A stretch of 48,319 nt of DNA. It comes from Gaiellales bacterium. GTDB taxonomy: Bacteria; Actinomycetota; Thermoleophilia; Gaiellales; JAICJC01. The notes beneath the pieces are model-generated. The model was not told the origin of the DNA. It saw only the letters and a list, made by a program, of their open reading frames with translations, and did no database searches. The DNA lies in contig DASXOR010000011.1 of assembly GCA_036494095.1 (NCBI GenBank), forward strand, positions 1 to 48,319, in the 5' to 3' direction. Shown piece by piece: positions 7,620 to 39,211 of the stretch (the first letter of the stretch is position 1; each line of letters opens with the position of its first letter). The translations under genes and the position numbers were made by a program.

Positions 7620-8315
7620 TCATGAGGCCTGGAACTCCGCCCACCCGCGTGCGCGCGTCTCGCACGCCGGGCAGGCCCCGCAGCCGTGGCCCCAGTCGTG
7701 CAGCTCGCCGCGCACGCCCTCGTAGCAGCTGTGCGTCTGCGTGCGCACGAGCTCGAGCACGCCGAGCTCGTCGGCGAGCGCCCACGTCTGCGCCTTCGTG
7801 CGGTGCAGCAGCGGGGCGTCGATCGTGAAGGCGGGGCAGTCCATGCCGGTCCGGATCGTCTCGGTCAGCGAGTCGACGAAGTCGGCCCGGCAATCCGGAT
7901 AGCCGGCCTCGTCCGTGGAGCACACGCCGGCCACCACCGTCTCGTAGCCGCGGGGGACGCCGAACGCGGCGGCGAGGCCGAGGAAGATGATGTTGCGTCC
8001 GGGCACGAACGACGACGGCAGGCCGCGCAGCTCCGCGTACGCGTTGCCGGTGCCCGTCGCGTCCAGCCGGCCGGCGATGGCCGGGTTCGTGAGGCTGGCG
8101 TCGGCGAGCTGCGAGAACACGCCGACCGGCAGGACGACCTGCTCCACACCGGCCCCGGCGGCCAGCGCGGCGGCGCATTCGAGCTCGATGCGGTGGCGCT
8201 GGCCGTAGTCGAACGAGACGGCATGCACCCGCTCGTAGCGGCGCAGCGCGGCGTACAGGCATGTGGTCGAGTCCTGCCCGCCGGAGAGGCAGACGACGGC
8301 CGCGCCGGCGCTCAC
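7620..8315 (-). CDS. queC: 7-cyano-7-deazaguanine synthase
   Basis: GTG 8315 inside track ORF 7620..8903 (GTGA overlap with the queF stop). Motifs VCLSGGQDS and C-terminal CYEG...CGACPACETR zinc cysteines. Confidence 0.9.
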   Translation of the reverse strand: MSAGAAVVCLSGGQDSTTCLYAALRRYERVHAVSFDYGQRHRIELECAAALAAGAGVEQVVLPVGVFSQLADASLTNPAIAGRLDATGTGNAYAELRGLPSSFVPGRNIIFLGLAAAFGVPRGYETVVAGVCSTDEAGYPDCRADFVDSLTETIRTGMDCPAFTIDAPLLHRTKAQTWALADELGVLELVRTQTHSCYEGVRGELHDWGHGCGACPACETRARGWAEFQAS

Positions 8316-8683
8316 GCCGGGTACGAGCTCGACGCGGTGACCGCGATCCCGCCGCGCGAGTTGAAGCGGACGGTGACCGTGAGCGCCACCGGATCGAGCG
8401 CCGCCACCAGGTCGTCGCGCATGACCGTCGCCAGGTGCTCGTGGAAGATGCCCTCCTCGCGGAAGGTCTCCAGGTAGAGCTTCAGGCTCTTGGTCTCGAC
8501 CGCGAGCTTGCCGGGCCGGTATTCGATCGAGATCGTCGCCCAGTCGGGCTGGCCCGTGATCGGGCAGCGGCAGGTGAACTCGGCGCAGTCGAGCGTGATC
8601 ACCTGGGTGGTGTCGGCGATCGGGAACGCCTCGATCGCGCGGTCGGACTTCGCTGAAGGATTGCCGAGCTTCGTCAGTTCCAC
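8312..8683 (-). CDS. queF: NADPH-dependent 7-cyano-7-deazaguanine reductase (type I QueF)
   Basis: Track ORF 8312..8722. I prefer GTG 8683, preceded by GAGG. Motifs CPITGQPDWA and ETKSLKLYLETF. Confidence 0.85.
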   Translation of the reverse strand: MELTKLGNPSAKSDRAIEAFPIADTTQVITLDCAEFTCRCPITGQPDWATISIEYRPGKLAVETKSLKLYLETFREEGIFHEHLATVMRDDLVAALDPVALTVTVRFNSRGGIAVTASSSYPA

Positions 8684-8697
8684 GGTTCGCCTCGCGG

Positions 8698-9420
8698 TCA
8701 GTGGCCTCGTTGGTGTCCCCATGCGAGGACATGCAGCTGGGGCAGGATGCGCGCGCCGTCCATCGCCGGGTCGCGGGCGGCACGCTCACACAGCCACCGG
8801 TAACGCTCCGAGACGCCGTCGAGCGCCTCGGCGTGCGACGTCCCCGGGCCGGGCGGATCGGTGCCGCACGACAGGTGGAAGGGTAGCCCGGGGTAGCGCG
8901 CACGCAGCACGCGCGCCCACGCGTAGTCCGCCTCGTCGAAGACGACCACCTTCAGCACGGCCCGGCCGGCGGCGACCGCGCGCTGCATGAAGCGCTCCGA
9001 CTCCTGCTCGTTGGCGGCGGTGGCCATCCCGCTCGAGGGCGGCTTGGGGCTGACCGTCAGCAGGTCGACGTCGGCGAGCCAGTCGCGCCACACGCTGCCC
9101 TGCGTCTCCACCGTCACCCGGCGGCCGTCGGCATGGAGCATCGAAACGAGCTCGCCCAGCTCGAGCAGGGCCGGGTTCCCGCCCGAGAGCGTGACCCACT
9201 CCGGCCTGCCGGCCAGCGCCGCGAGCGCCGCCGCCACCTCGACAGGCGTCATCCGGGGCGCCTTGCGCACATCCTCAGGCAGGACGGCGAAAAGCGAATC
9301 GCACCAGCTGCAGCGATAGTCGCAACCGCCGAAGCGCACGAACGCGGTCGGCACGCCCGCGAGCTCGCCCTCTCCCTGGATGGTCGGCCCGAACACCTCG
9401 ACGACCGGCAGCGCGCTCAT
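8698..9420 (-). CDS. queE: 7-carboxy-7-deazaguanine synthase (radical SAM)
   Basis: ATG 9420 (MSALPVVEVFGPTIQGEG...) inside track ORF 8698..10311. CDYRCSWCD cluster. ATGA overlap with the queD stop. Confidence 0.9.
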   Translation of the reverse strand: MSALPVVEVFGPTIQGEGELAGVPTAFVRFGGCDYRCSWCDSLFAVLPEDVRKAPRMTPVEVAAALAALAGRPEWVTLSGGNPALLELGELVSMLHADGRRVTVETQGSVWRDWLADVDLLTVSPKPPSSGMATAANEQESERFMQRAVAAGRAVLKVVVFDEADYAWARVLRARYPGLPFHLSCGTDPPGPGTSHAEALDGVSERYRWLCERAARDPAMDGARILPQLHVLAWGHQRGH

Positions 9421-9806
9421 CGGCGCACGGTGGCCGCCGCCGTCTCGGTCTCCCAGACGGTCACCTCCGTGACCGGCAGCCCGGCGCCCTCCACCAGGCC
9501 GAGCACCCAGGCGGCGATGTGCTCGGCCGTGGTGGGCAGAAACGGCTCGGGCATCGTCTCGTTCAGGAAGCGGTGGTCGACCAGCGGCTCGACCTCGCGC
9601 CGCCACCACTCCGACACCGCCAGGAAGTCGAGCACCATGCCGTCGTCGGACTCGCCCCGCGCAGGCTTGATCTCGCCCTCGAAGCAGAGCTCGACGCGGT
9701 AGGAGTGGCCGTGCAGGCCGCGGCACTTGCCCGCGTGGTCGGGCAGCGAGTGGGCCGCCTCGAAGCGGAAGGTCTTTCGGATCGACGCGCGCATCGGCGC
9801 GGACAA
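9417..9806 (-). CDS. queD: 6-carboxy-5,6,7,8-tetrahydropterin synthase
   Basis: Track ORF of 129 aa. Motifs FRFEAAHSLP and CRGLHGHSY. Confidence 0.9.
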   Translation of the reverse strand: MSAPMRASIRKTFRFEAAHSLPDHAGKCRGLHGHSYRVELCFEGEIKPARGESDDGMVLDFLAVSEWWRREVEPLVDHRFLNETMPEPFLPTTAEHIAAWVLGLVEGAGLPVTEVTVWETETAAATVRR

Positions 9807-23717: not shown

Positions 23718-24944
23718 GTGAACGCGAAGCCGACGCCGACGACCTACGGCGACCGGGCCGTCTACTCCGTGGCCGGGTTCAACCAGGGCGTGGCCGACTG
23801 GCTCGGCCGGCTCGGCAACGTCTGGGTCGAGGGCGAGCTCGCGGAGCTCAAGCGAACCGACCGCTGGGGGCTCGTGTACTTCTGCCTCAAGGACGACGGG
23901 GCGATCCTGCAGGGCTCGATGCAGCGCGAGCGCTTCGACAAGATCCAGCCGCCGCCGGCCGTCGGCGACCGCGTGCACGCCTTCGGCCGCGGCGAGCTGT
24001 GGCAGCGCAAGGGCGAGTTCCGCTTCCGGGCGTACGCGATCGAGCAGTTCGGCCTCGGCCAGCTGCTGCGCCGGATCGAGGAGGTGCGCTTGCGGCTGGC
24101 GGAGGACGGCCTCTTCGCCGCCGAGCGCAAGGGGCCCCTGCCGTTTCTGCCCGGCCTGGTCGGGCTCGTGTGCGGCAGCGACGCCGCCGCCAAGCGCGAT
24201 GTCGTCGAGACGGCGACGGCGCGGCATCCGGCCGTGCGCTTCCGCATCGTCGAGGCGGCGGTGCAGGGGGCCGGCGCCGCGGGGGCCGTGACGGCGGCCC
24301 TGCGGGCGCTCGACGCCGACCCGGCGGTCGAGGTGATCGTGCTCGCCCGCGGCGGGGGCAGCGTCGAGGACCTGCTGGCGTTCTCCGACGAGGGCCTGTG
24401 CCGGGCGGTCGCCGAGTGCCGCACCCCGGTCGTCTCGGCGATCGGCCACGAGCAGGACATGCCGCTCGTCGATCTCGTCGCCGACGTCCGCGCCGGCACG
24501 CCGAGCCTCGCGGCGAAGCTGATCGTCCCCGACCACGCCGCCGTCGGCGCCGAGCTCGACGCGCTGCTCGCCCGGGCAGGGCGGGCGCTCGAGGGGCGCG
24601 CAACCCACGCCCGCCGGCACCTGCAGCTCCTGGTGGCCCGGCCGGCCTTCGCCGATCCCCGCAGCTGGATCACGGCCCGGCGGGCACTGCTCGACGGCGC
24701 GTCGGCGTCGCTGCGGCGACTGCCGGGGCTGCGGCTCGAGCGCGAGACCGCGCGGCTGCGAAACGCCCACGACCGGCTGCGCCTGCTCGGGCCTGCGGCG
24801 ACGCTCGAGCGGGGATACGCGATCGTCCAGGACGACGCCGGCGCGGTCGTCCGCGACGCAGCCGCGGTCGCCGTCGGCGAGCGGGTGGGTGTGCGGCTGG
24901 CAACCGGGCGCCTGGGCGCCCGCGTCGAGGAGGTGCAGCCGTGA
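23718..24944 (+). CDS. xseA: exodeoxyribonuclease VII large subunit
   Basis: Track ORF of 408 aa with a GTG start. OB-fold N-terminus. Motifs LARGGGSVEDLLAF and GHEQD. Confidence 0.9.
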   Translation: MNAKPTPTTYGDRAVYSVAGFNQGVADWLGRLGNVWVEGELAELKRTDRWGLVYFCLKDDGAILQGSMQRERFDKIQPPPAVGDRVHAFGRGELWQRKGEFRFRAYAIEQFGLGQLLRRIEEVRLRLAEDGLFAAERKGPLPFLPGLVGLVCGSDAAAKRDVVETATARHPAVRFRIVEAAVQGAGAAGAVTAALRALDADPAVEVIVLARGGGSVEDLLAFSDEGLCRAVAECRTPVVSAIGHEQDMPLVDLVADVRAGTPSLAAKLIVPDHAAVGAELDALLARAGRALEGRATHARRHLQLLVARPAFADPRSWITARRALLDGASASLRRLPGLRLERETARLRNAHDRLRLLGPAATLERGYAIVQDDAGAVVRDAAAVAVGERVGVRLATGRLGARVEEVQP

Positions 24945-25171
24945 GCACCGGCCCGAGCTTCGAGCAGGCCCGCGACGAGCTCGAGCAGATCGTCCGCAAG
25001 CTCGAAGACGGCAGCACGTCGCTCGACGAGGCGCTCGCCCTGTGGGAGCGCGGCGAGCAGCTGCACGCGCTCTGCCGCGCCCGCCTCGACGCGGCCGAGG
25101 AGCGTGTGGCCGAGCTCCTGGAACGGCTTGGGCGCACGCCCGCGACCGCGCCGGACGACTCAGGCGGCTGA
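24941..25171 (+). CDS. xseB: exodeoxyribonuclease VII small subunit
   Basis: GTG 24941 (GTGA overlap with the xseA stop). Sequence SFEQARDELEQIVRKLEDGSTSLDEALALWERGEQL. Confidence 0.85.
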   Translation: MSTGPSFEQARDELEQIVRKLEDGSTSLDEALALWERGEQLHALCRARLDAAEERVAELLERLGRTPATAPDDSGG

Positions 25172-27333: not shown

Positions 27334-28299
27334 CTACGCGGGCCGAACACCAGCCGCCGGTTTCGGCCCGCGATTCCCCCTCCCCGGGTTTAGGCGCACT
27401 TCCCTCTCGTAGGCATCGGCAGTCCAGGCGATCCGCATGCCCAGGCGCTCGTACAGGCGCCGCGCCCCGGCGTTGTCGCCGTCGACGCCCAGCCCGACGC
27501 GCCGCTCGCCCCGGCGCCACAGCCGGTGGAAGCTCTCGAGCAGAAGCGCCGCGCCCAGCCCCCTGCGCCGCCACGGCGGCCGCACCGCGAGGCTCTCGAC
27601 GAAGCCCATGCCGAAGGTGTCCGGCATGCACAGGGCGGCGCCACATACCTCGTCCCCGTCCCGAGCCACGATCCACAGCCGCCGGTCGAAGCGCGGGTCG
27701 GCCACCTTCTGCTCGCGCCACTGCGCCTGGTTGCTCCACGCGTTCGAGAACGCCTCGACGATGCAGGCGTCCACCATCGGCCCGTCAGTGCCCGGGTCGA
27801 ACGCCGCGGCCACGAGGCCGTCCGGCCAGACCGGAGCCGGCGGCGCCGCTGCGAGGTCTGCGACCATGCGCAGGTGCTCTTCGGCGCGCTCGTAGCCGCG
27901 CGATTCGAGCAGCTCGCGGGCGGCGCAATCCGCGCGCAGCACGGCATTGCGGAGCACGATCAGCGCCGGGTCGGCGGCGGCTGCGCGCTCCTGCGTCCGC
28001 CGCTCGGTCGCCGCGACGAGCGCCGCGCCGACCCCGTGGCCGGCGTGATCGGGGTCGACCCAGCCGAGCGCGAACAGGCGCCCGTGGCCGTCGTCGTGCA
28101 GGCAGGCATGGCCGGCCGGGACGCCGTCGCGTTCGACCAGCCACGCGTCGCGGCGCACATCCCCGAGCCCGGCCCAGTCGTCGCGGACGTCGGCTGCGCT
28201 GCGGCCCGGGTCGCCGCCCATCGCGCGGCCGTAGGCGTTTCCGAGCGCGGCCACCACCCCCGCCTCGCCGGGCCGCGGCGGTCGCAGCTGCAGGCTCAC
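27334..28299 (-). CDS. tandem-GNAT N-acetyltransferase (MshD-like two-domain architecture)
   Basis: Track ORF of 321 aa. GTG start in a GTGA overlap with the upstream stop. Two acetyl-CoA motifs: HAGHGVGAALV and RRRGLGAALLLES. Confidence 0.8.
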   Translation of the reverse strand: MSLQLRPPRPGEAGVVAALGNAYGRAMGGDPGRSAADVRDDWAGLGDVRRDAWLVERDGVPAGHACLHDDGHGRLFALGWVDPDHAGHGVGAALVAATERRTQERAAAADPALIVLRNAVLRADCAARELLESRGYERAEEHLRMVADLAAAPPAPVWPDGLVAAAFDPGTDGPMVDACIVEAFSNAWSNQAQWREQKVADPRFDRRLWIVARDGDEVCGAALCMPDTFGMGFVESLAVRPPWRRRGLGAALLLESFHRLWRRGERRVGLGVDGDNAGARRLYERLGMRIAWTADAYEREVRLNPGRGNRGPKPAAGVRPA

Positions 28300-29519
28300 C
28301 GCGCGGCCGGCGCTCCCAGCGCGGCGTCGACCGCGTCGGGGTCGGCCGGGATCGCGATCGTCTCCACCGCCCCGGCCACCGCCTCGACGGTCTTCAGGCC
28401 GTCACCGGTGATGAACGCGACGACCGTCTCGCCCGCGCCGATCTCGCCGCGCTCGGCCAGGCCGCGCAGCACGGCCATTGTGACGCCGCCGGCCGTCTCG
28501 GTGAAGATGCCGGTCGTGCGGGCGAGCAGACGGATGCCGTCGACGATCTCGGCATCGGCGGCCGACTCGATGCTGCCGCCGGTGCGGCGGGCGACACCGA
28601 GCGCGTAGACGCCGTCGGCGGGATTGCCGATCGCGAGCGACTTCGCGATGCCGGTTGGGCGCACCGGCACGACCGCATCGGCGCCGGCCGCGTAGGCCGA
28701 AGCGACGGGCGAGCAGCCCTCGCCCTGGGCGCCGTGCATCACCGGCGCCGGGCCGGGCGCGATCAGGCCGGCGGTGCGCCCCTGCTCGAACCCCTGCAGG
28801 ATCTTCGTGTAGAGCGACCCCGAGGCGATCGGCACGACGACGCGGTCGGGCGCACGCCAGCCCAGCTGCTCGGCCGTCTCGAGGGCGATCGTCTTCGACC
28901 CCTCGGCGTAATAGGCGCGCATGTTCACGTTCACGAACGCCCACGGGCGGTCGTAGGTGAGCTCGGAGCACAGCCGGTTCACGTCGTCATACGAGCCGTC
29001 CACCGCGAACACCGTGGCGCCGTAGGCGGCCGCGGCGATGATCTTCTCGCGCTCGAGGTCGGACGGAACGAAGATGTACGTGGGCAGCCCCAGGGCGGCG
29101 CCGGCCGCCGCGGTGGCGCCGGCCAGGTTGCCGGTCGACGCGCAGGCGAGCGCCTCGTAGCCGAGCTCGACCGCTTTCGCGGCGGCGACCGCGACGACCC
29201 GGTCCTTGAACGAGTGGGTGGGGTTCGACGTCTCGGTCTTGATGTAGAGATCGCACTCGAGGCCGAGCTCGGCGGCCAGCCGGTCGGCCTTGATCAGCGG
29301 CGAGCACCCCACCGGGAGGCCGTGCTCGGGCGGCGCCACCGGCAGGAAGTCGGCGAACCGCCAGAGCGTCCGCGGCCCGGCCTCGACGCGGCCGCGCGCC
29401 ACCGGTTCGGACTCGTCCCAGCCGACCTCGAGCGGGCCGAAACAGCGGTCGCACGCAAACAGCGCCTCGAGCGGGTAGGTGGCCCCGCAGCCCTTGCAGG
29501 CGAGATGGCTTGCCTTCAT
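28296..29519 (-). CDS. thrC: threonine synthase family PLP enzyme with an N-terminal Cys4 zinc ribbon
   Basis: ATG 29519 (MKASHLACKGCGATYPLEALFACDRCFGPLE) inside track ORF 28296..30014. PLP lysine in NPTHSFKDR. Motifs ASTGNLAG and YYAEGSKT. Function is questioned in the findings because of the SAM riboswitch. Confidence 0.85.
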   Translation of the reverse strand: MKASHLACKGCGATYPLEALFACDRCFGPLEVGWDESEPVARGRVEAGPRTLWRFADFLPVAPPEHGLPVGCSPLIKADRLAAELGLECDLYIKTETSNPTHSFKDRVVAVAAAKAVELGYEALACASTGNLAGATAAAGAALGLPTYIFVPSDLEREKIIAAAAYGATVFAVDGSYDDVNRLCSELTYDRPWAFVNVNMRAYYAEGSKTIALETAEQLGWRAPDRVVVPIASGSLYTKILQGFEQGRTAGLIAPGPAPVMHGAQGEGCSPVASAYAAGADAVVPVRPTGIAKSLAIGNPADGVYALGVARRTGGSIESAADAEIVDGIRLLARTTGIFTETAGGVTMAVLRGLAERGEIGAGETVVAFITGDGLKTVEAVAGAVETIAIPADPDAVDAALGAPAAR

Positions 29520-29567
29520 GGTCGATCCCCTACGTTCGGGCCGGCGCCGCATGGGCGCCGGACGGTT

Positions 29568-29679
29568 CACATCGTCCGGGATCGTGAGACCCCGCCGGAT
29601 TTGGCACCTTTCCCGGCCGGCACGGCCGGGATGGTTGCCGAGGCTTCGCAGGGCCGGTCCCTCCGCCTCTCTGGATGCG
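29568..29679 (-). promoter_or_regulatory. SAM-I (S-box) riboswitch aptamer in the 5' leader of the ThrC-family gene
   Basis: Minus-strand RNA: CGCAUCCAGAGAGGCGGAGGGACCGGCCCUGCGAAGCCUCGGCAACCAUCCCGGCCGUGCCGGCCGGGAAAGGUGCCAAAUCCGGCGGGGUCUCACGAUCCCGGACGAUGUG. S-box core present: AGAGAGGYGGAGGGAC.GGCCC..GAA.CC.GGCAACC ... GGUGCCAAAUCC. P1 is CGCAUC/GAUGUG, P2 is GAGGC/GCCUC, P3 is CCCGGCCG/CGGCCGGG. Confidence 0.9.
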
Positions 29680-29798
29680 ACGCCGGGGATCGCCCCGGCG
29701 GGTACGCACACTGCTCGTCTCATGGTAGACGGCGCCCACCCCGGGCGGCAAACCACAACTGGTGGAAGATTCGTGTGGGCACGCGCGTCTGGTGGGAC

Positions 29799-29993
29799 AT
29801 GATTCCGAACTCGCACATGTACCTTCAGGTGGCGCGACTGCGCCAGGCCGAGCTCGCAGCCCAGGCCCGCCATGCCGAGCTCATCCGGCGCGCGCGGGCG
29901 GGGCAGCTGCAGCCCGAGCTTGCAGCCGGCCGCGTGCATGAGCGCCGCTCCCGCTTGGCCACGCTTCTGCGCGGCCGGCCGGCGATGGCCTGA
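29799..29993 (+). CDS. small Arg/Ala-rich helical hypothetical protein (64 aa; alternative start 29817)
   Basis: C-terminal part of track ORF 28734..29993: MIPNSHMYLQVARLRQAELAAQARHAELIRRARAG... GC3 is high only from here on. Confidence 0.4.
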   Translation: MIPNSHMYLQVARLRQAELAAQARHAELIRRARAGQLQPELAAGRVHERRSRLATLLRGRPAMA

Positions 29994-30023
29994 CCTCCAG
30001 CGCCCCGCCGGCACCGGCTTGGT

Positions 30024-30054
30024 GGCCGCCTAACCAACCCCTCGTTAGGCGGCC
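30024..30054. terminator. 11-bp stem hairpin GGCCGCCTAAC-N9-GTTAGGCGGCC between convergent small ORFs
   Basis: Read directly. It lies 30 nt after the + ORF stop (29993) and 65 nt after the - ORF stop (30119). Confidence 0.5.
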
Positions 30055-30118
30055 GCCTAGGCCGGGCCTCCCTTAGGCGCCTCTGTGGACTCGCGCCGCG
30101 CAGCCGCCCGATCGTGCT

Positions 30119-30434
30119 CTAGTGCGCCGCGGCGCACTGCGCGGCGGTGGGGGTGCGCACGGAGATCGGCGGGTCGAGCGCGATCGCCTGCGAGTCGTCA
30201 AAGACGCCGAGCACGGTGAAGTGTGCCGTCACAGACGACTGCGTCGTGACTCCCGGTGATGACCGGTACCAGTGGACACGCGGACGCAGCGTGATCGAGG
30301 CGTTGGTATCCGCCGGATCCTGCGTGTGCGCCGACAACGGGAAGGCCGCCCACCCTGGAGGCCCCAGCCTCCAGCGGCACGGTCGAGGTCAGGGTATGTA
30401 GCCCCCAGGTGACCGTCCCCAGGACGGTGAGCAC
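30119..30434 (-). pseudogene. possible frameshifted small gene downstream of sulfite reductase (two track ORFs, 30198..30434 and 30119..30337, joined by a +1 shift near 30337)
   Basis: The high-GC3 signal sits in the frame of 30198..30434 down to about 30340. It then moves to the frame of 30119..30337. Strand assignment is uncertain because + ORF 30147..30401 shares the same third positions. Confidence 0.25.
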
Positions 30435-30465
30435 GGCGGCCGATACGGTCGGCGCCGGGCCGAGG

Positions 30466-32139
30466 CTACGCGGCCGCCTCCGCCGCCTCGGAGGGCTCCG
30501 GTGCGACCGCGACGCCTGCGAGCGCCGCCAGCCGCCGGTCGGACTGCTCGGCGGCCCAGCGGGCGAACGTGCCGTCCGCGGGCCGCTCGGCGGCGTAGGC
30601 GCGCACCAGCCGCTCGACCGCGTATTTGGCGTCCTCGGCCGGGATCGGCTTCGACGAGACCCGGCGGCCGAAGCCCGCGTCCTCGCCGAGGCGGCCGCCG
30701 ATATGGACGATGAAGCCCTGCACCCGGCGGCCGTCGGGCAGGCGCGCGATCCCGCCCTGCAGGCCGATGTCGGCCACCTGGTACTGGGCGCAGGCGTTGG
30801 GGCAGCCGTTCAGGTTGATCCGCAGCGAGCCGGCGATGTCCCCCACCCTCCGCTCCAGGTGCTCGATCAGCTCGCGGGCGCGCTCCTTCGTCTCGACGAT
30901 GGCGAGCTTGCAGAACTCCATGCCGGTGCACGAGATGATCCCGCGCCGGAACGTGGATGCTGTCGTCGGCAGGCCTACATCGGCGAGCGACGCGGCCGCC
31001 TCCTCGACGCTCGCGTCGGGCACGCCGAGCACGATCACGTTCTGCCGGTTCGTGCAGCGCAGCTCGCCCGATCCGAAGCGGTCGGCGATGTCGGCGACGG
31101 CGATCATCTGCTCACCGCTGAAGCGGCCGCGCAGCGTCGTCGCGCCCAGGTAGTACAGGCCCGCCTCGATCTGCGGGTGCACGCCCAGGTGGTCGCGGTG
31201 CGGGTCGATCGGATCGGCCGGGACGACGGACGTCGGCAGGCTGCGGCCGATCTTGCGCTCGACCTCGGCCCGGAGCCGCTCGACGCCCCACTCGTCGACC
31301 AGGAACTTGATCCGCGCGCGTGTCCGCTTGGTGCGCTTGCCCTCGTCGCGGAAGAGCTCGGTGATCGCGGCGCACACCTCGGCTGCCTCGCCGGGCAGGA
31401 CGAACGCGTCCAGGCGCCTGCCCATGCGGGCGGACGCGCCCAGGCCGCCGCCGACCCAGACGTCGTAGCCGAGGACGCCTTCGCGCTCGACCGCGACCAG
31501 GCCGATGTCGTTGATCTCGTGCTGGGCGCAGCGGTGCAGGCAGCCCGACACCGACACCTTGAACTTGCGCGGCAGATTCGAGAAGCGCTTGTCGCCCACG
31601 AAGATGCGCTCGAGCTCGGCGATCAGCGGGCGCGAGTCGAGCAGCTCGTGGCCGTCCACCCCGGCGAGCGGGCAGCCGACGACGTTTCGCCACACGTCGC
31701 CGCACGCCTGCGTGAACGAGAGCCCGACCGCGTTCAGCTCGTCGAGGACGACGGGCATGTCCTCGATGCGCAGCCAGTGCAGCTGGATGTTCTGACGGGT
31801 GGTGATGTCGCCCATCCCGCGGCCGTAGCGCACCGAGAGCCGGCCGATCGTGCGCAGCTGATCCGCGGTCACGATCCCGTTCGGGAACTTGATCCGCAGC
31901 ATGAAGAGGCCGTCGGTCTCCTCGGACGGGCCGGGCACGCCCGATTCGGCCGATTCCGCGGCGCGCTGGGTGTAGACGCCGTACCACCGAAACAGCGCGA
32001 GGTCGTCCGGCTCGATCGCCTCGAAGCCGAGCTCGGCGTAGCGGTAGATGTCGGCCAGCACGTCCAAGCCGTCCTTGCGAGCCTTGATGTGCTCGATCTC
32101 GGGCAGCTTCGCCGCGGTATCGGTGGGCATAACAGGCAC
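30466..32139 (-). CDS. ferredoxin-dependent sulfite (nitrite/sulfite) reductase, SirA/NirA type
   Basis: Track ORF of 557 aa with a GTG start. Two NIR_SIR repeats. Siroheme/4Fe-4S cysteines in TGMEFCKLA and NGCPNACAQ. Confidence 0.9.
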   Translation of the reverse strand: MPVMPTDTAAKLPEIEHIKARKDGLDVLADIYRYAELGFEAIEPDDLALFRWYGVYTQRAAESAESGVPGPSEETDGLFMLRIKFPNGIVTADQLRTIGRLSVRYGRGMGDITTRQNIQLHWLRIEDMPVVLDELNAVGLSFTQACGDVWRNVVGCPLAGVDGHELLDSRPLIAELERIFVGDKRFSNLPRKFKVSVSGCLHRCAQHEINDIGLVAVEREGVLGYDVWVGGGLGASARMGRRLDAFVLPGEAAEVCAAITELFRDEGKRTKRTRARIKFLVDEWGVERLRAEVERKIGRSLPTSVVPADPIDPHRDHLGVHPQIEAGLYYLGATTLRGRFSGEQMIAVADIADRFGSGELRCTNRQNVIVLGVPDASVEEAAASLADVGLPTTASTFRRGIISCTGMEFCKLAIVETKERARELIEHLERRVGDIAGSLRINLNGCPNACAQYQVADIGLQGGIARLPDGRRVQGFIVHIGGRLGEDAGFGRRVSSKPIPAEDAKYAVERLVRAYAAERPADGTFARWAAEQSDRRLAALAGVAVAPEPSEAAEAAA

Positions 32140-35580: not shown

Positions 35581-36612
35581 TTGAAGCGAGTACAAGTCCA
35601 TATCGCCGCAGCCGCCCTCGTGGTGGTCTCCCTGGCCGCCCTCGCGGCCGCATGCGGGGGCAGTGGCAGCACGGCCGGAGCCAGTCCCAAGCAGAAGATC
35701 AATCTGGTCGCGTACTCCACCCCGGAGACGTCCTACGCGAAGCTGATCCCCGCCTTCAATCAGACATCCGCGGGCAAGGGGGTCACCTTCACCCAGTCCT
35801 ATGGGGCGTCCGGAGACCAGAGCCGCGCGGTCGCAGCGGGACAGGCGGCCGACGTGGTCCATTTCGCCCTCGAGCCGGATATCGCACGCCTGGTGGACGC
35901 CAAGCTCGTGAGCCCCAACTGGGATCAGGGTCAGTACAAGGGCATCGTCGCGAACACGATGGTCGTGTTCGTCGTGCGCAAGGGCAACCCGAAGCACATC
36001 ACCACCTGGGACGACCTGACGAAGCCGGGCATGCAGGTGATCACGCCCAACCCGTTCACGTCGGGAGGCGCCCGCTGGAACATCATGGCGGCGTACGGCG
36101 CGCAGCTCAAGGAGGGCAAGACACCGGCCCAGGCCCAGCAGTACCTGAGCACCCTGTTCCACAACGTGCCGGTGCAGGACGACAAGGCGTCGGCGGCGCT
36201 GCAGACGTTCACCGGCGGCAAGGGTGACGTGCTCCTGGCCTACGAGCAGGACGCGCTCTTGGCGCAGGAGAGCGGTGCTCCGATCCAGATCGTGTACCCG
36301 CCGCAGACGATCGAGATCCAGACGCCCATCGCAACCACCGTCAAGGCCTCGGCGGCGGCCACGTCGTTCGTCAAGTGGCTGTACACGCCCGCCGCGCAGA
36401 CGATCCTGGCCCAGACCGGCTACCGGCCGGTGGTGGCGAGCGCCGAGTCCGCCTTCAGCAAGGCGTTCCCGAGCGCGCAGACGCCGACCGAGTTCACCAT
36501 CGACGACGTCGACTCGGGCGGATGGGACGACGTGATGACGAAGTTCTTCGATCCCACGAACAGCGTCATGCAGAAGATCGAGTCCAGCATCGGAGTGTCG
36601 ACCAGCTCATGA
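35581..36612 (+). CDS. sulfate/thiosulfate ABC transporter substrate-binding lipoprotein
   Basis: Track ORF 35518..36612, trimmed to TTG 35581 (AGGAG 5 nt upstream; low GC3 before it). Lipobox LAAACG. Sbp/CysP-like sequence. Confidence 0.9.
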   Translation: MKRVQVHIAAAALVVVSLAALAAACGGSGSTAGASPKQKINLVAYSTPETSYAKLIPAFNQTSAGKGVTFTQSYGASGDQSRAVAAGQAADVVHFALEPDIARLVDAKLVSPNWDQGQYKGIVANTMVVFVVRKGNPKHITTWDDLTKPGMQVITPNPFTSGGARWNIMAAYGAQLKEGKTPAQAQQYLSTLFHNVPVQDDKASAALQTFTGGKGDVLLAYEQDALLAQESGAPIQIVYPPQTIEIQTPIATTVKASAAATSFVKWLYTPAAQTILAQTGYRPVVASAESAFSKAFPSAQTPTEFTIDDVDSGGWDDVMTKFFDPTNSVMQKIESSIGVSTSS

Positions 36613-37427
36613 CGACGGTCGCACTCCCGCGCAGGCGGGCCTCCGGGGCGGCGCGACCCAGCGTCGCCCCGGGGGTTGCGATCACCTACCTGTCGGTGAT
36701 CGTGCTCCTGCCGCTCGCCGCCCTTCTGTGGACGTCGAAAAAGGGCGGCGCTCACGCCTTCTGGCAGGCCATCACCGCGCCCGACGCCGTCGCGGCGCTC
36801 AAGCTCACGCTGGGCGCGGCGCTCCTCGTCGCGCTCATCAACGCCGTCTTCGGCACCCTGATCGCGTGGGTGCTCGTGCGCGACTCGTTCCTGGGCAAGG
36901 GCGTCATCAACTCGCTCATCGACCTGCCGTTCGCGCTGCCCACGGTCGTCGCCGGCCTCACCCTGCTCACCCTGTACGGGCCCAACTCGCCGATCGGCCT
37001 GAACATCACCTACACGCGCAAGGCGGTCGTCCTTGCGCTCCTCTTCGAGACGCTGCCCTTCGTGATCCGAAGCGTCCAACCCGTCCTGCTCGAGCTCGAC
37101 CGCGAGATGGAGGACGCGGCCGCGTCGCTCGGGGCACGCGGGCACACCATCTTCCGCCGTGTCGTGCTCCCGAACCTGCTGCCGGCGATTCTCTCCGGGA
37201 TGGCCCTCGCCTTCGCCCGTGCGGTCGGCGAGTACGGGTCGGTCGTGATGCTCTCGGGCAACGTGCCCTTCTCGACCGAGGTCGCGTCGGTGCACATCTA
37301 CTCCCAGATCCAGAGCGACTACGTGACCGGCGCAGCCGCGATGTCGATCGTCCTTCTGGCGATCTCGCTGGCGGTGCTGCTCTCGATCACAGGCCTGCAG
37401 CGATGGAGCGCGAAGCATGATCGTTAG
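36609..37427 (+). CDS. cysT: sulfate ABC transporter permease CysT
   Basis: ATG 36609 (ATGA overlap) inside track ORF 36375..37427. EAA loop EDAAASLGARGHTIFRRVVLP. Confidence 0.9.
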   Translation: MTTVALPRRRASGAARPSVAPGVAITYLSVIVLLPLAALLWTSKKGGAHAFWQAITAPDAVAALKLTLGAALLVALINAVFGTLIAWVLVRDSFLGKGVINSLIDLPFALPTVVAGLTLLTLYGPNSPIGLNITYTRKAVVLALLFETLPFVIRSVQPVLLELDREMEDAAASLGARGHTIFRRVVLPNLLPAILSGMALAFARAVGEYGSVVMLSGNVPFSTEVASVHIYSQIQSDYVTGAAAMSIVLLAISLAVLLSITGLQRWSAKHDR

Positions 37428-38208
37428 GCTCGGACTCCGGTTCATCGCCCTCGCCTACCTGGCGCTCCTGCTGATCGTGCCGGTGACGATCATCGTCGTG
37501 CACACGTTCTCGGGCGGACTCGCCCCGGTGTGGAACTCGCTCACCACTCCCGACGCCGTGGCAGCCCTCGTGCTGACACTCAAGATCACGCTGATCACGG
37601 TGCCGCTGAACACGATCTTCGGCATCACGATGGCGCTCCTGATCGTGCGCCGCAACTTCCGCGGGAAGGCGCTGCTCTCGGCGCTCATCGACCTGCCCTT
37701 CGCAGTGTCGCCGGTGATCGTCGGGTTCACGCTGATCCTCGTCTACGGCATGAACGGCTGGTTCGGCAGCTTCTTCATCGACCAGGGCTACCCGATCATC
37801 TTCTCCACGCCCGGGATGGTGCTCGCGACGATGTTCGCATCGCTCCCGTTCGTCGCGCGCGAGGTGATCCCGGTGCTGCGCGAGATCGGCACCGAGCAGG
37901 AGCAGGCCGCCTCGACGCTCGGAGCCAAGGGCTGGCAGACGTTCCGCCGCGTCACCCTGCCCGCCATCCGCTGGGGCATCGTGTACGGCGTCGTCTTGAC
38001 GACGGCCCGCTCGATCGGCGAGTTCGGCGCCGTCGCCGTGGTGTCCGGGAACGTCATCGGCCAGACGCAGACCCTGACACTGCGCGTCTCCCAGGAGTAT
38101 CAGAACTTCGACCACATCGCCGCCTACACGGCCGCGCTCGAGCTCGCCGTGATCGCGCTCGTGACCCTGTTTCTGATGAACCTGTTCCATCCTCGAAAGG
38201 ACCACTGA
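37417..38208 (+). CDS. cysW: sulfate ABC transporter permease CysW
   Basis: Track ORF of 263 aa. EAA loop [21 protein letters not shown]. Confidence 0.9.
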
Positions 38209-38212
38209 ACGC

Positions 38213-39211
38213 ATGGCCATCACCGTCCGCAACGTCAACAAGCGATTCGGCGACTTCGTCGCCCTCGACGGCGTCAGCCTGGAGGTGCCCTCGGGATCGC
38301 TGACGGCACTGCTCGGCCCAAGCGGGAGCGGCAAGTCGACGCTCCTGCGCGTGATCGCCGGCCTGGAGAAGGCCGACACCGGCGAGGTCTACATCGGCGG
38401 GAGCGAGGCGACCAAGCTGCCTCCGCACCGGCGTGACGTCGGGTTCGTGTTCCAGCACTACGCCGCGTTCAAGCACATGACCGTGGCCAAGAACATCGCC
38501 TTCGGGCTCGAGATCCGCAAGCGGCCGAAAGACGAGGTTCGCAAGCGGGTCGCCGAGCTGCTCCACCTGGTGCAGCTCGACGGCTTCGGTGAGCGCTACC
38601 CGTCGCAGCTCTCGGGCGGCCAGCGGCAGCGCATGGCGCTCGCCCGGGCGCTCGCGGTCGAGCCCGAGGTGCTGCTCCTCGACGAGCCCTTCGGTGCGCT
38701 CGACGCGCGCGTGCGCAGCGAGCTGCGGGCCTGGCTGCGGCGGCTGCACGACGAGATGCACGTGACCACGGTGTTCGTCACCCACGACCAGGATGAGGCG
38801 ATGGAGGTGTCGGACACGATCGTGCTCATGGACCGCGGCGCGATCGTACAGGAGGGCCACCCGCAGGAGCTGTACGACCACCCCGAGAGCGAGTTCGTCA
38901 TGCGGTTCATGGGCCAGGTGAACCGGATCGGCGGCGTCTACGTGCGCCCCCACGATGTCGAGATCCGGCTCGAGCCGAACGGGACAACAGAGCCGGCCGT
39001 GGTCGACCGGATCCTGCACCTGGGCCACCACATCCGGGTCGAGCTCTCGGTGAACGGCGGCGAGCCCGTGTCGGCGCAGCTGACTCGCGACGAGGCCGAC
39101 CGCCTCCGCCTCGAGCCGGGCCGGCCGGTGTTCGTGCGCCCGAGCCGGGCGAGGACGTTCGATGGTGGCCGGGGAGAGCTCTCAGCCGAGCCCGAGCCCA
39201 GCGCCGTTTGA
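38213..39211 (+). CDS. cysA: sulfate ABC transporter ATP-binding protein CysA
   Basis: Track ORF of 332 aa. Walker [10 protein letters not shown], signature LSGGQRQR, Walker B LLLDEP, plus a C-terminal regulatory domain. Confidence 0.9.

Follow-up and report, generated by a model that had tools for sequence, protein, structure and literature searches.

In the CysM-CysO-Mec-MoeZ system of Mycobacterium tuberculosis, a fold-type II pyridoxal 5'-phosphate (PLP) enzyme combines O-phosphoserine with the thiocarboxylate of a ThiS-like carrier to form cysteine, and CysM is also capable of a carrier-independent reaction with sulfide. A counterpart in methionine metabolism comes from Streptomyces albulus, where MetM, a homologue of threonine synthase (ThrC), is reported to convert O-phosphohomoserine to homocysteine with the thiocarboxylate of MetO (Hasebe et al. 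2024, AEM 90:e01247-24). MetO is a sulfur carrier whose sulfur-donating thiocarboxylate is prepared by MoeZ and Mec; the same source notes frequent misannotation of MetM as threonine synthase (GapMind 2026). The S. albulus metM gene is preceded by an S-adenosylmethionine (SAM) riboswitch; the 'ThrC' of Microcystis aeruginosa shares 51.6% identity with S. albulus MetM and is encoded beside a MetO-like gene, but lacks a SAM riboswitch, and the protein showed threonine deaminase and weak threonine synthase activities in vitro (PMC12172450). Here we analyse a 48,319-nt stretch of DNA from an uncultured Gaiellales bacterium (class Thermoleophilia; contig DASXOR010000011.1), referred to as the window throughout, in which a SAM-I riboswitch precedes a ThrC-like gene. 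From homology and gene neighbourhood, we consider it quite probable that this is a SAM-repressed operon for a MetM-type homocysteine synthase that depends on O-phosphohomoserine.

The likeness to S. albulus is extensive. In both cases, a PLP enzyme homologous to ThrC is encoded behind a SAM riboswitch in a member of the Actinomycetota, the predicted substrate and product are O-phosphohomoserine and homocysteine, and the annotation reads threonine synthase. The window differs in having no metO within 10 kb of the gene, in its neighbouring sulfite reductase and sulfate transporter genes, and in an acetyltransferase gene that overlaps the end of the metM-type gene. The initial annotation, made from the sequence alone, had pointed to reports of ThrC-like homocysteine synthases in actinomycetes that use O-phosphohomoserine; these correspond to MetM/MetO of S. 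albulus, and this published pathway explains why a SAM-I riboswitch should stand in front of a ThrC-like gene.

Other systems can be ranged around the window in the same way. Taking one genome for each GTDB species, we collected 80 related loci, in which the homologues from Gaiellales and other Thermoleophilia are 79-96% identical to the window protein, and those from Solirubrobacterales, Thermoleophilaceae, Acidimicrobiia, one Chloroflexota and two Cyanobacteria 55-63%. The nearest proteins overall (64-91% identity) are metagenome-derived, and the named ones among them are called Gaiellales threonine synthase. The operons of Solirubrobacterales, Thermoleophilaceae and Acidimicrobiia (L023-L080; 56-63% identity) share with the window an N-terminal Cys4 ribbon, the residues typical of the clade and a SAM-I riboswitch, but unlike the window they carry metO, encoding 90-94 aa with a PAVAGG end, directly downstream. 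The two cyanobacterial loci (L081 and L082) encode MetM homologues that are 55% identical to the window protein and have no SAM riboswitch. Canonical ThrC, represented by four solved bacterial threonine synthases (PDB 2zsj, 6cgq, 1uim and 2d1f), has the same fold, PLP lysine motif and probably substrate, but lacks the Cys4 ribbon, the linkage to a sulfur carrier and the SAM riboswitch. The CysM-CysO-Mec-MoeZ system resembles MetM in joining an O-phospho amino acid with the thiocarboxylate of a ThiS-like carrier; unlike the window protein, its enzyme belongs to the CysK/CysM subfamily and is not under a SAM riboswitch.

The riboswitch is a real SAM-I aptamer. A cmscan of the whole window returned Rfam family RF00162 (SAM) at 29681..29566 on the minus strand with 81.8 bits, well over the gathering score of 44.4 (E = 7.4e-18), and the match spans model positions 1-108 of 108. 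It is the sole Rfam match above the gathering score in the 48-kb window; a permissive Rfam rescan of 29400-30600, which takes in the 785-nt gap upstream of the riboswitch, yielded no second RNA family. The initial annotation had read a near-consensus S-box aptamer at 29679->29568, in agreement with the Rfam match to within 2 nt, and both aptamer and gene lie where that first reading placed them. The aptamer ends 47 nt before the start codon of the metM-type gene (ATG, 29519), on the same strand. Across 21 aligned Gaiellales leaders the aptamer core is near-invariant, and the pairing of P3 and P4 is kept by compensatory changes, with 3-8 double changes for each pair of P4 and one double change in P3; P1 and P2 are invariant in these leaders and are therefore uninformative on covariation. 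A motif search found the SAM-I core upstream of the homologue in 77 of the 80 species-representative loci, and Rfam bore out SAM-I in 16 of the 18 loci tested, the two exceptions being the cyanobacterial ones. As a separate observation, position 29648 of the window is C, where T is found in contig L001 (99.85% identical) and in each of the 20 other Gaiellales leaders. At this site, which lies on the k-turn side of P2, the Rfam consensus (CCCuaUGAAg) has a highly conserved U. The C may reflect strain variation or an error in sequencing, and the aptamer reaches its 81.8 bits in spite of it.

The gene downstream encodes a 407-aa member of the ThrC family (Pfam PALP, E 9e-66). All of the motifs named in the initial annotation are found in it, with CKGC at residues 8-11, CDRC at 23-26, SFKDR at 103-107 and YYAEGSKT at 203-210, and the PLP lysine is Lys105 (codon 29207-29205). 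Its AlphaFold model (predicted local distance difference test, pLDDT, 86.3) has the ThrC fold, with a target-normalised TM-score of 0.85-0.89 against ThrC structures, and the best matches among solved structures are threonine synthases both by sequence and by fold search. The four cysteines of the N-terminal segment, C8, C11, C23 and C26, are invariant in 77 of 77 MetM-clade homologues. This segment, which is modelled with beta strands at residues 2-8 and 30-35 (pLDDT 84-88), has no counterpart in the solved ThrC structures, which align from near residue 49 onwards.

We therefore come to the distinction between MetM and ThrC within this family. The window protein is 34-38% identical to the four solved threonine synthases versus 55-63% to the homologues that are linked to metO. 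Bacillus subtilis ThrC reportedly shares 33% identity with S. albulus MetM (bioRxiv 10.64898/2026.09.15.751699) and, by our comparison, 35% with the window protein, so that in sequence its distances to the two appear comparable. When 21 proteins from Gaiellales and 56 from the rest of the clade were aligned with the four solved ThrC, approximately 55 positions proved conserved and identical in both clade groups and different from the ThrC residue. These positions include motifs around the PLP lysine and glycine-rich loops that are conserved in the solved ThrC: NPTGSFKDRG of ThrC becomes NPTHSFKDRVV in the MetM clade, CASTGNTSAS becomes CASTGNLA.., SVNPxRxEGQKT becomes NMRxYYxEGSKT, GNAGN becomes ASGSL, ATAIRIGNPASW becomes AKSLAIGNPADG, and EPASAAS becomes ETAGGVT. 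The arginine of SVNPxRxEGQKT, invariant in the four solved ThrC, is a tyrosine in the MetM clade, and NPTGSFKDRG, SVNPxRxEGQKT, GNAGN and EPASAAS are all four replaced in the window protein, as they are in the metO-linked homologues. By neighbour joining, the Gaiellales proteins form a clade that is sister to Solirubrobacterales plus Thermoleophilaceae and nested inside the metO-carrying groups, which places the window protein in the metO-linked clade and distant from the solved threonine synthases. No second ThrC-like gene was found within the window or in any of the locus flanks, which are the parts of the genomes covered. Based on these comparisons of sequence, we conclude that the window protein belongs with the MetM-clade enzymes and not with the threonine synthases. 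Both the placement and the replaced ThrC residues are consistent with the proposal of the initial annotation that the enzyme would make homocysteine from O-phosphohomoserine.

The genes linked to these homologues point to the same pathway. We searched 10 kb around metM in 24 Gaiellales loci, as well as 58 loci outside Gaiellales, for metO, using tblastn and an unfiltered profile search (hmmsearch --max) with a MetO profile. Outside Gaiellales, the homologue is directly followed in 55 of the 58 loci by an open reading frame (ORF) of 90-94 aa, which often overlaps its stop codon. Its product matches the Pfam ThiS (PF02597) and MoaD/SAMP1 models, has an invariant RRFVN motif and terminates in PAVAGG, sometimes with one additional residue. 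Homologue and carrier together are the metM-metO pair known from S. albulus, and the distribution of the SAM riboswitch over the loci, with the cyanobacterial ones as exceptions, repeats the published pattern.

For the substrate, product, sulfur donor and switch action of the window operon, we infer the following scheme. Abundant SAM would bind the aptamer (29681-29566), and the leader would shut off the downstream gene, most likely by hiding the ribosome-binding site. The PLP enzyme would take O-phosphohomoserine from the threonine branch and eliminate phosphate, and the addition of sulfur at the gamma carbon would yield homocysteine, the immediate precursor of methionine and SAM. In the sister lineages, the sulfur donor would be the C-terminal thiocarboxylate of MetO, the ThiS-like carrier encoded directly downstream. 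Since metO is not adjacent in Gaiellales, the donor there would be either a carrier encoded elsewhere, the option we favour, or sulfide supplied by the sulfite reductase nearby.

The Gaiellales leader suggests how such a switch may act. A candidate promoter precedes the aptamer (Table 1), and both of its hexamers are conserved in position across the 21 Gaiellales leaders; a consensus promoter scanner made no call in the leader because only 8 of the 12 consensus positions match. With conservation as its sole basis, this element may be the promoter, and the transcript would start near 29715 if it is used. Just 5' of P1, a hairpin holds CGAUCCCC (29692-29685), the perfect complement of the Shine-Dalgarno region. 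The resulting long-range helix (29692-29685 / 29530-29523) is paired in 88.7% of the cells of the 21-leader alignment, with 7 double-change cells, a level equalled by none of 500 shuffles, and it is also present in the predicted minimum free energy structure; its role would be to hide the ribosome-binding site. Segment 29700-29681 can alternatively fold as a local hairpin of its own. Between P1 and the ribosome-binding site lies a GC-rich hairpin, and a hairpin at this position, with a sequence that differs between species, occurs in 20 of the 21 other folded Gaiellales leaders; leader L021 is without it, yet still has the 5' element, together with a ribosome-binding site of related sequence. 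Downstream of the GC hairpin, the Gaiellales leaders have a conserved stretch, CCCGAACGUAGGGGAUCGACCAUG. A terminator scan of the window leader found no canonical terminator. As the expression platform has no U-tract terminator, translational control is favoured, and we suggest that control is probably exerted through sequestration of the ribosome-binding site; termination at the GC hairpin, which has no U tract, may contribute.

The relatives are built differently. In most Solirubrobacterales, the leader ends in a hairpin CCUCCGCC...GGCGGAGG, the 3' arm of which includes a GGAGG ribosome-binding site. Of 56 non-Gaiellales actinobacterial leaders, 25 have a U run after the last hairpin. This layout suggests sequestration with or without termination, that is, mixed transcriptional and translational control within one family. 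Unlike the last hairpin of Solirubrobacterales, the GC hairpin of Gaiellales has neither a GGAGG ribosome-binding site nor a U run. Two further observations were made upstream of the leader. A 64-aa ORF (MIPNSHMYLQVARLRQAEL...) at 29799-29993 on the plus strand is divergent from the metM leader and recurs in 13 Gaiellales loci at 51-94% amino-acid identity; no NCBIfam model matched it. The approximately 400 nt between the reductase stop and this small ORF (30066-30466) are present only in the window and L001 and absent from the other Gaiellales loci, and no Rfam family was found in them.

The metM-type gene of Gaiellales lies in a conserved order of genes: a sulfate ABC transporter, an NlpC/P60 hydrolase, a GntR regulator, a NirA/SirA-type reductase, the riboswitch with metM, a thioredoxin and an ArsR regulator. 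In most Gaiellales loci the reductase adjoins metM on its upstream side and shares its strand (the gap is 221 nt in L086); against PRK09566 it scores 445.7 bits, below the cutoff of 594. The sulfate transporter genes are syntenic in Gaiellales, and this sulfur-assimilation neighbourhood of reductase and sulfate transporter is conserved there and was not seen in the Solirubrobacterales loci. Such surroundings speak in favour of the MetM reading. On the other side, the GTG start of a GNAT acetyltransferase gene overlaps the metM stop (GTGA), and the two genes are therefore probably co-transcribed. The acetyltransferase scores 58.9 bits against MshD (cutoff 163), and its nearest PDB entry, 3tt2, is of unknown function. 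It is present in approximately half of the Gaiellales loci, where it is 52-69% identical, or 88% in the nearest relative (L003); its neighbours in the same loci are mostly 80-97% identical. We considered the acetyltransferase as a substitute for MetO and rejected this, since it is absent from about half of the loci, is poorly conserved and matched no characterised family. In our view this fast-evolving gene is a passenger on the transcript that the riboswitch controls. A database entry of 712 aa (P0113) is called as a MetM-GNAT fusion.

Table 1. Positions of the metM-type operon, its leader elements and neighbouring genes in the window
Feature	Position	Strand	Basis or remarks
Candidate promoter: -35 TTGCCG 29751-29746, 18-nt spacer, -10 TACCAT 29727-29722	29722..29751	-	Predicted
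5' leader hairpin CGCCGGGG-CGAU-CCCCGGCG	29681..29700	-	Read directly in sequence; conserved in Gaiellales
SAM-I (S-box) riboswitch aptamer, helices P1-P4	29566..29681	-	RF00162 full-length match; P3/P4 covariation
GC-rich hairpin CCGGCGCC-CAUGC-GGCGCCGG, without U tract	29541..29561	-	Folding; between P1 and ribosome-binding site
Shine-Dalgarno region GGGGAUCG	29523..29530	-	3 nt upstream of ATG; conserved in Gaiellales leaders
metM-type gene, 407 aa, ThrC-like fold-type II PLP enzyme	28296..29519	-	ATG 29519, stop 28298-28296
Cys4 zinc-ribbon-like segment, C8, C11, C23, C26	29442..29498	-	N-terminal
Tandem-GNAT acetyltransferase, 321 aa	27334..28299	-	Pfam Acetyltransf_1 twice
NirA/SirA-type ferredoxin-dependent sulfite (or nitrite) reductase	30466..32130	-	NIR_SIR, NIR_SIR_ferr, each twice
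Sulfate ABC transporter sbp-cysT-cysW-cysA	35581..39211	+	TIGR00971, TIGR02139, TIGR02140, TIGR00968 above cutoffs

Farther from the operon, the window ORFs gave Pfam matches to QueC, PTPS (6-pyruvoyl tetrahydropterin synthase, QueD-type) and QueF. These probably belong to the consecutive ORFs at approximately 7620-9806 on the minus strand, which may form a cluster for queuosine precursor synthesis. Pfam also matched the large subunit of exonuclease VII among the window ORFs; synteny with L086 puts the genes for its large and small subunits at approximately 23718-25171 (plus strand), some kb beyond the downstream end of the metM operon, and their synteny extends across Gaiellales.

Several observations weigh against assigning a MetM/MetO-type function to the window operon. 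The window protein scores 239.8 bits against TIGR00260, the thrC equivalog model, whose cutoff is 167.1, which is why standard annotation makes it a threonine synthase. Its link to the characterised S. albulus MetM is transitive, through the metO-linked homologues and the published cyanobacterial homologue. No MetO-like ORF was found in the 48-kb window by tblastn or hmmsearch --max, as the initial annotation had already remarked for the immediate surroundings of the gene, and metO was found within 10 kb in none of the 24 Gaiellales loci by the same two means. Gaiellales proteins also carry substitutions of their own beside conserved motifs (N134G, V136T, P202A and T290G). Finally, equilibrium folding gave the same sequestered ribosome-binding site whether P1 was favoured or penalised; the ribosome-binding site thus pairs with the 5' flank irrespective of P1, and folding does not demonstrate a coupling between SAM and expression, which may be kinetic. 

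The score against TIGR00260, the threonine synthases among the best structural matches and the weak threonine synthase activity of the Microcystis homologue in vitro (PMC12172450) would all suit a genuine threonine synthase under SAM control, for example one that balances the threonine and methionine branches. However, the metO-linked homologues exceed the same cutoff (293 and 337 bits), and no MetM-named model is among the NCBIfam models matched by them or by the window protein. The low identity to solved ThrC, the replacement of residues invariant in these structures, the co-occurrence of the orthologous clade in operons with a sulfur carrier, and the lack of a known logic for SAM repression of threonine synthesis make a true ThrC very improbable in our judgement. 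We give equally little credence to another replacement within the ThrC superfamily, such as a cysteate-synthase-like enzyme or one using a different nucleophile, for example methanethiol to form methionine directly. The Cys4 ribbon is common to models that also cover cysteate synthase, and the cysteate-synthase-like CapA2 (9k3c) is among the structural matches, but the protein reaches only 56.1 bits against the cysteate synthase model TIGR03844 (cutoff 324.9), the clade signature fits the metO-linked homologues, and the SAM riboswitch points to the methionine pathway. Cysteate synthase and true ThrC were thus both rejected on hidden Markov model scores and residue signatures.

The source of the sulfur is a closer question. 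The MetM of Gaiellales may have lost MetO and take free sulfide from the sulfite reductase, acting as a direct O-phosphohomoserine sulfhydrylase. The contrast between Gaiellales and their relatives in adjacent metO (0 of 24 versus 55 of 58 loci) would fit this, as would the tree, in which the loss of linkage is derived, the reductase directly upstream in most Gaiellales loci, the Gaiellales-specific substitutions and the ability of M. tuberculosis CysM to use sulfide as well. Against this stand two observations from Solirubrobacterales. In one neighbourhood with Pfam labels, MoeZ and Mec are not encoded beside metM-metO, which makes a carrier encoded elsewhere plausible. Furthermore, L024 and L068 are likewise without adjacent metO and have an ORF of approximately 800 aa after metM, yet L026, a close relative of L024, has kept metO, indicating that the linkage was also lost outside Gaiellales. 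Since sulfide is the presumed source for thiocarboxylation of the carrier too, the neighbouring reductase does not discriminate between the two readings. Searching 5.8 billion proteins with the MetO profile returned, among the best 120 matches, close Solirubrobacterales-type carriers only, and the 3342 matches at E<=1e-10 among cluster representatives come without taxonomy and are thus untied to Gaiellales. On balance, we regard direct use of sulfide as doubtful, and a one-component, sulfide-using MetM with an unusual long-range helix control and no terminator as unlikely. A MetM-type homocysteine synthase supplied by a carrier encoded elsewhere appears the more probable arrangement.

The core biology of MetM and MetO was published in 2024, and the window locus accordingly confirms and extends known work and does not open a new field. 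It is an addition from an uncultured lineage to the published MetM/MetO biology, and the peculiarities of Gaiellales do not alter the picture. Compared with the available literature, three features are apparently new: throughout the order Gaiellales no carrier gene adjoins metM, metM is instead associated with genes for a sulfite reductase and for sulfate uptake, and the expression platform is a different one.

The metM-type gene and thousands of its relatives are labelled threonine synthase in public databases. With no MetM among the matched NCBIfam models, metabolic reconstructions of Thermoleophilia would miss this route to methionine, and the SAM riboswitch offers an inexpensive and dependable marker by which MetM can be told from ThrC in Actinomycetota. 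Based on our findings, we suggest that Gaiellales, without an adjacent carrier gene, offer a natural test case for whether MetM strictly needs a protein thiocarboxylate or is able to use sulfide.

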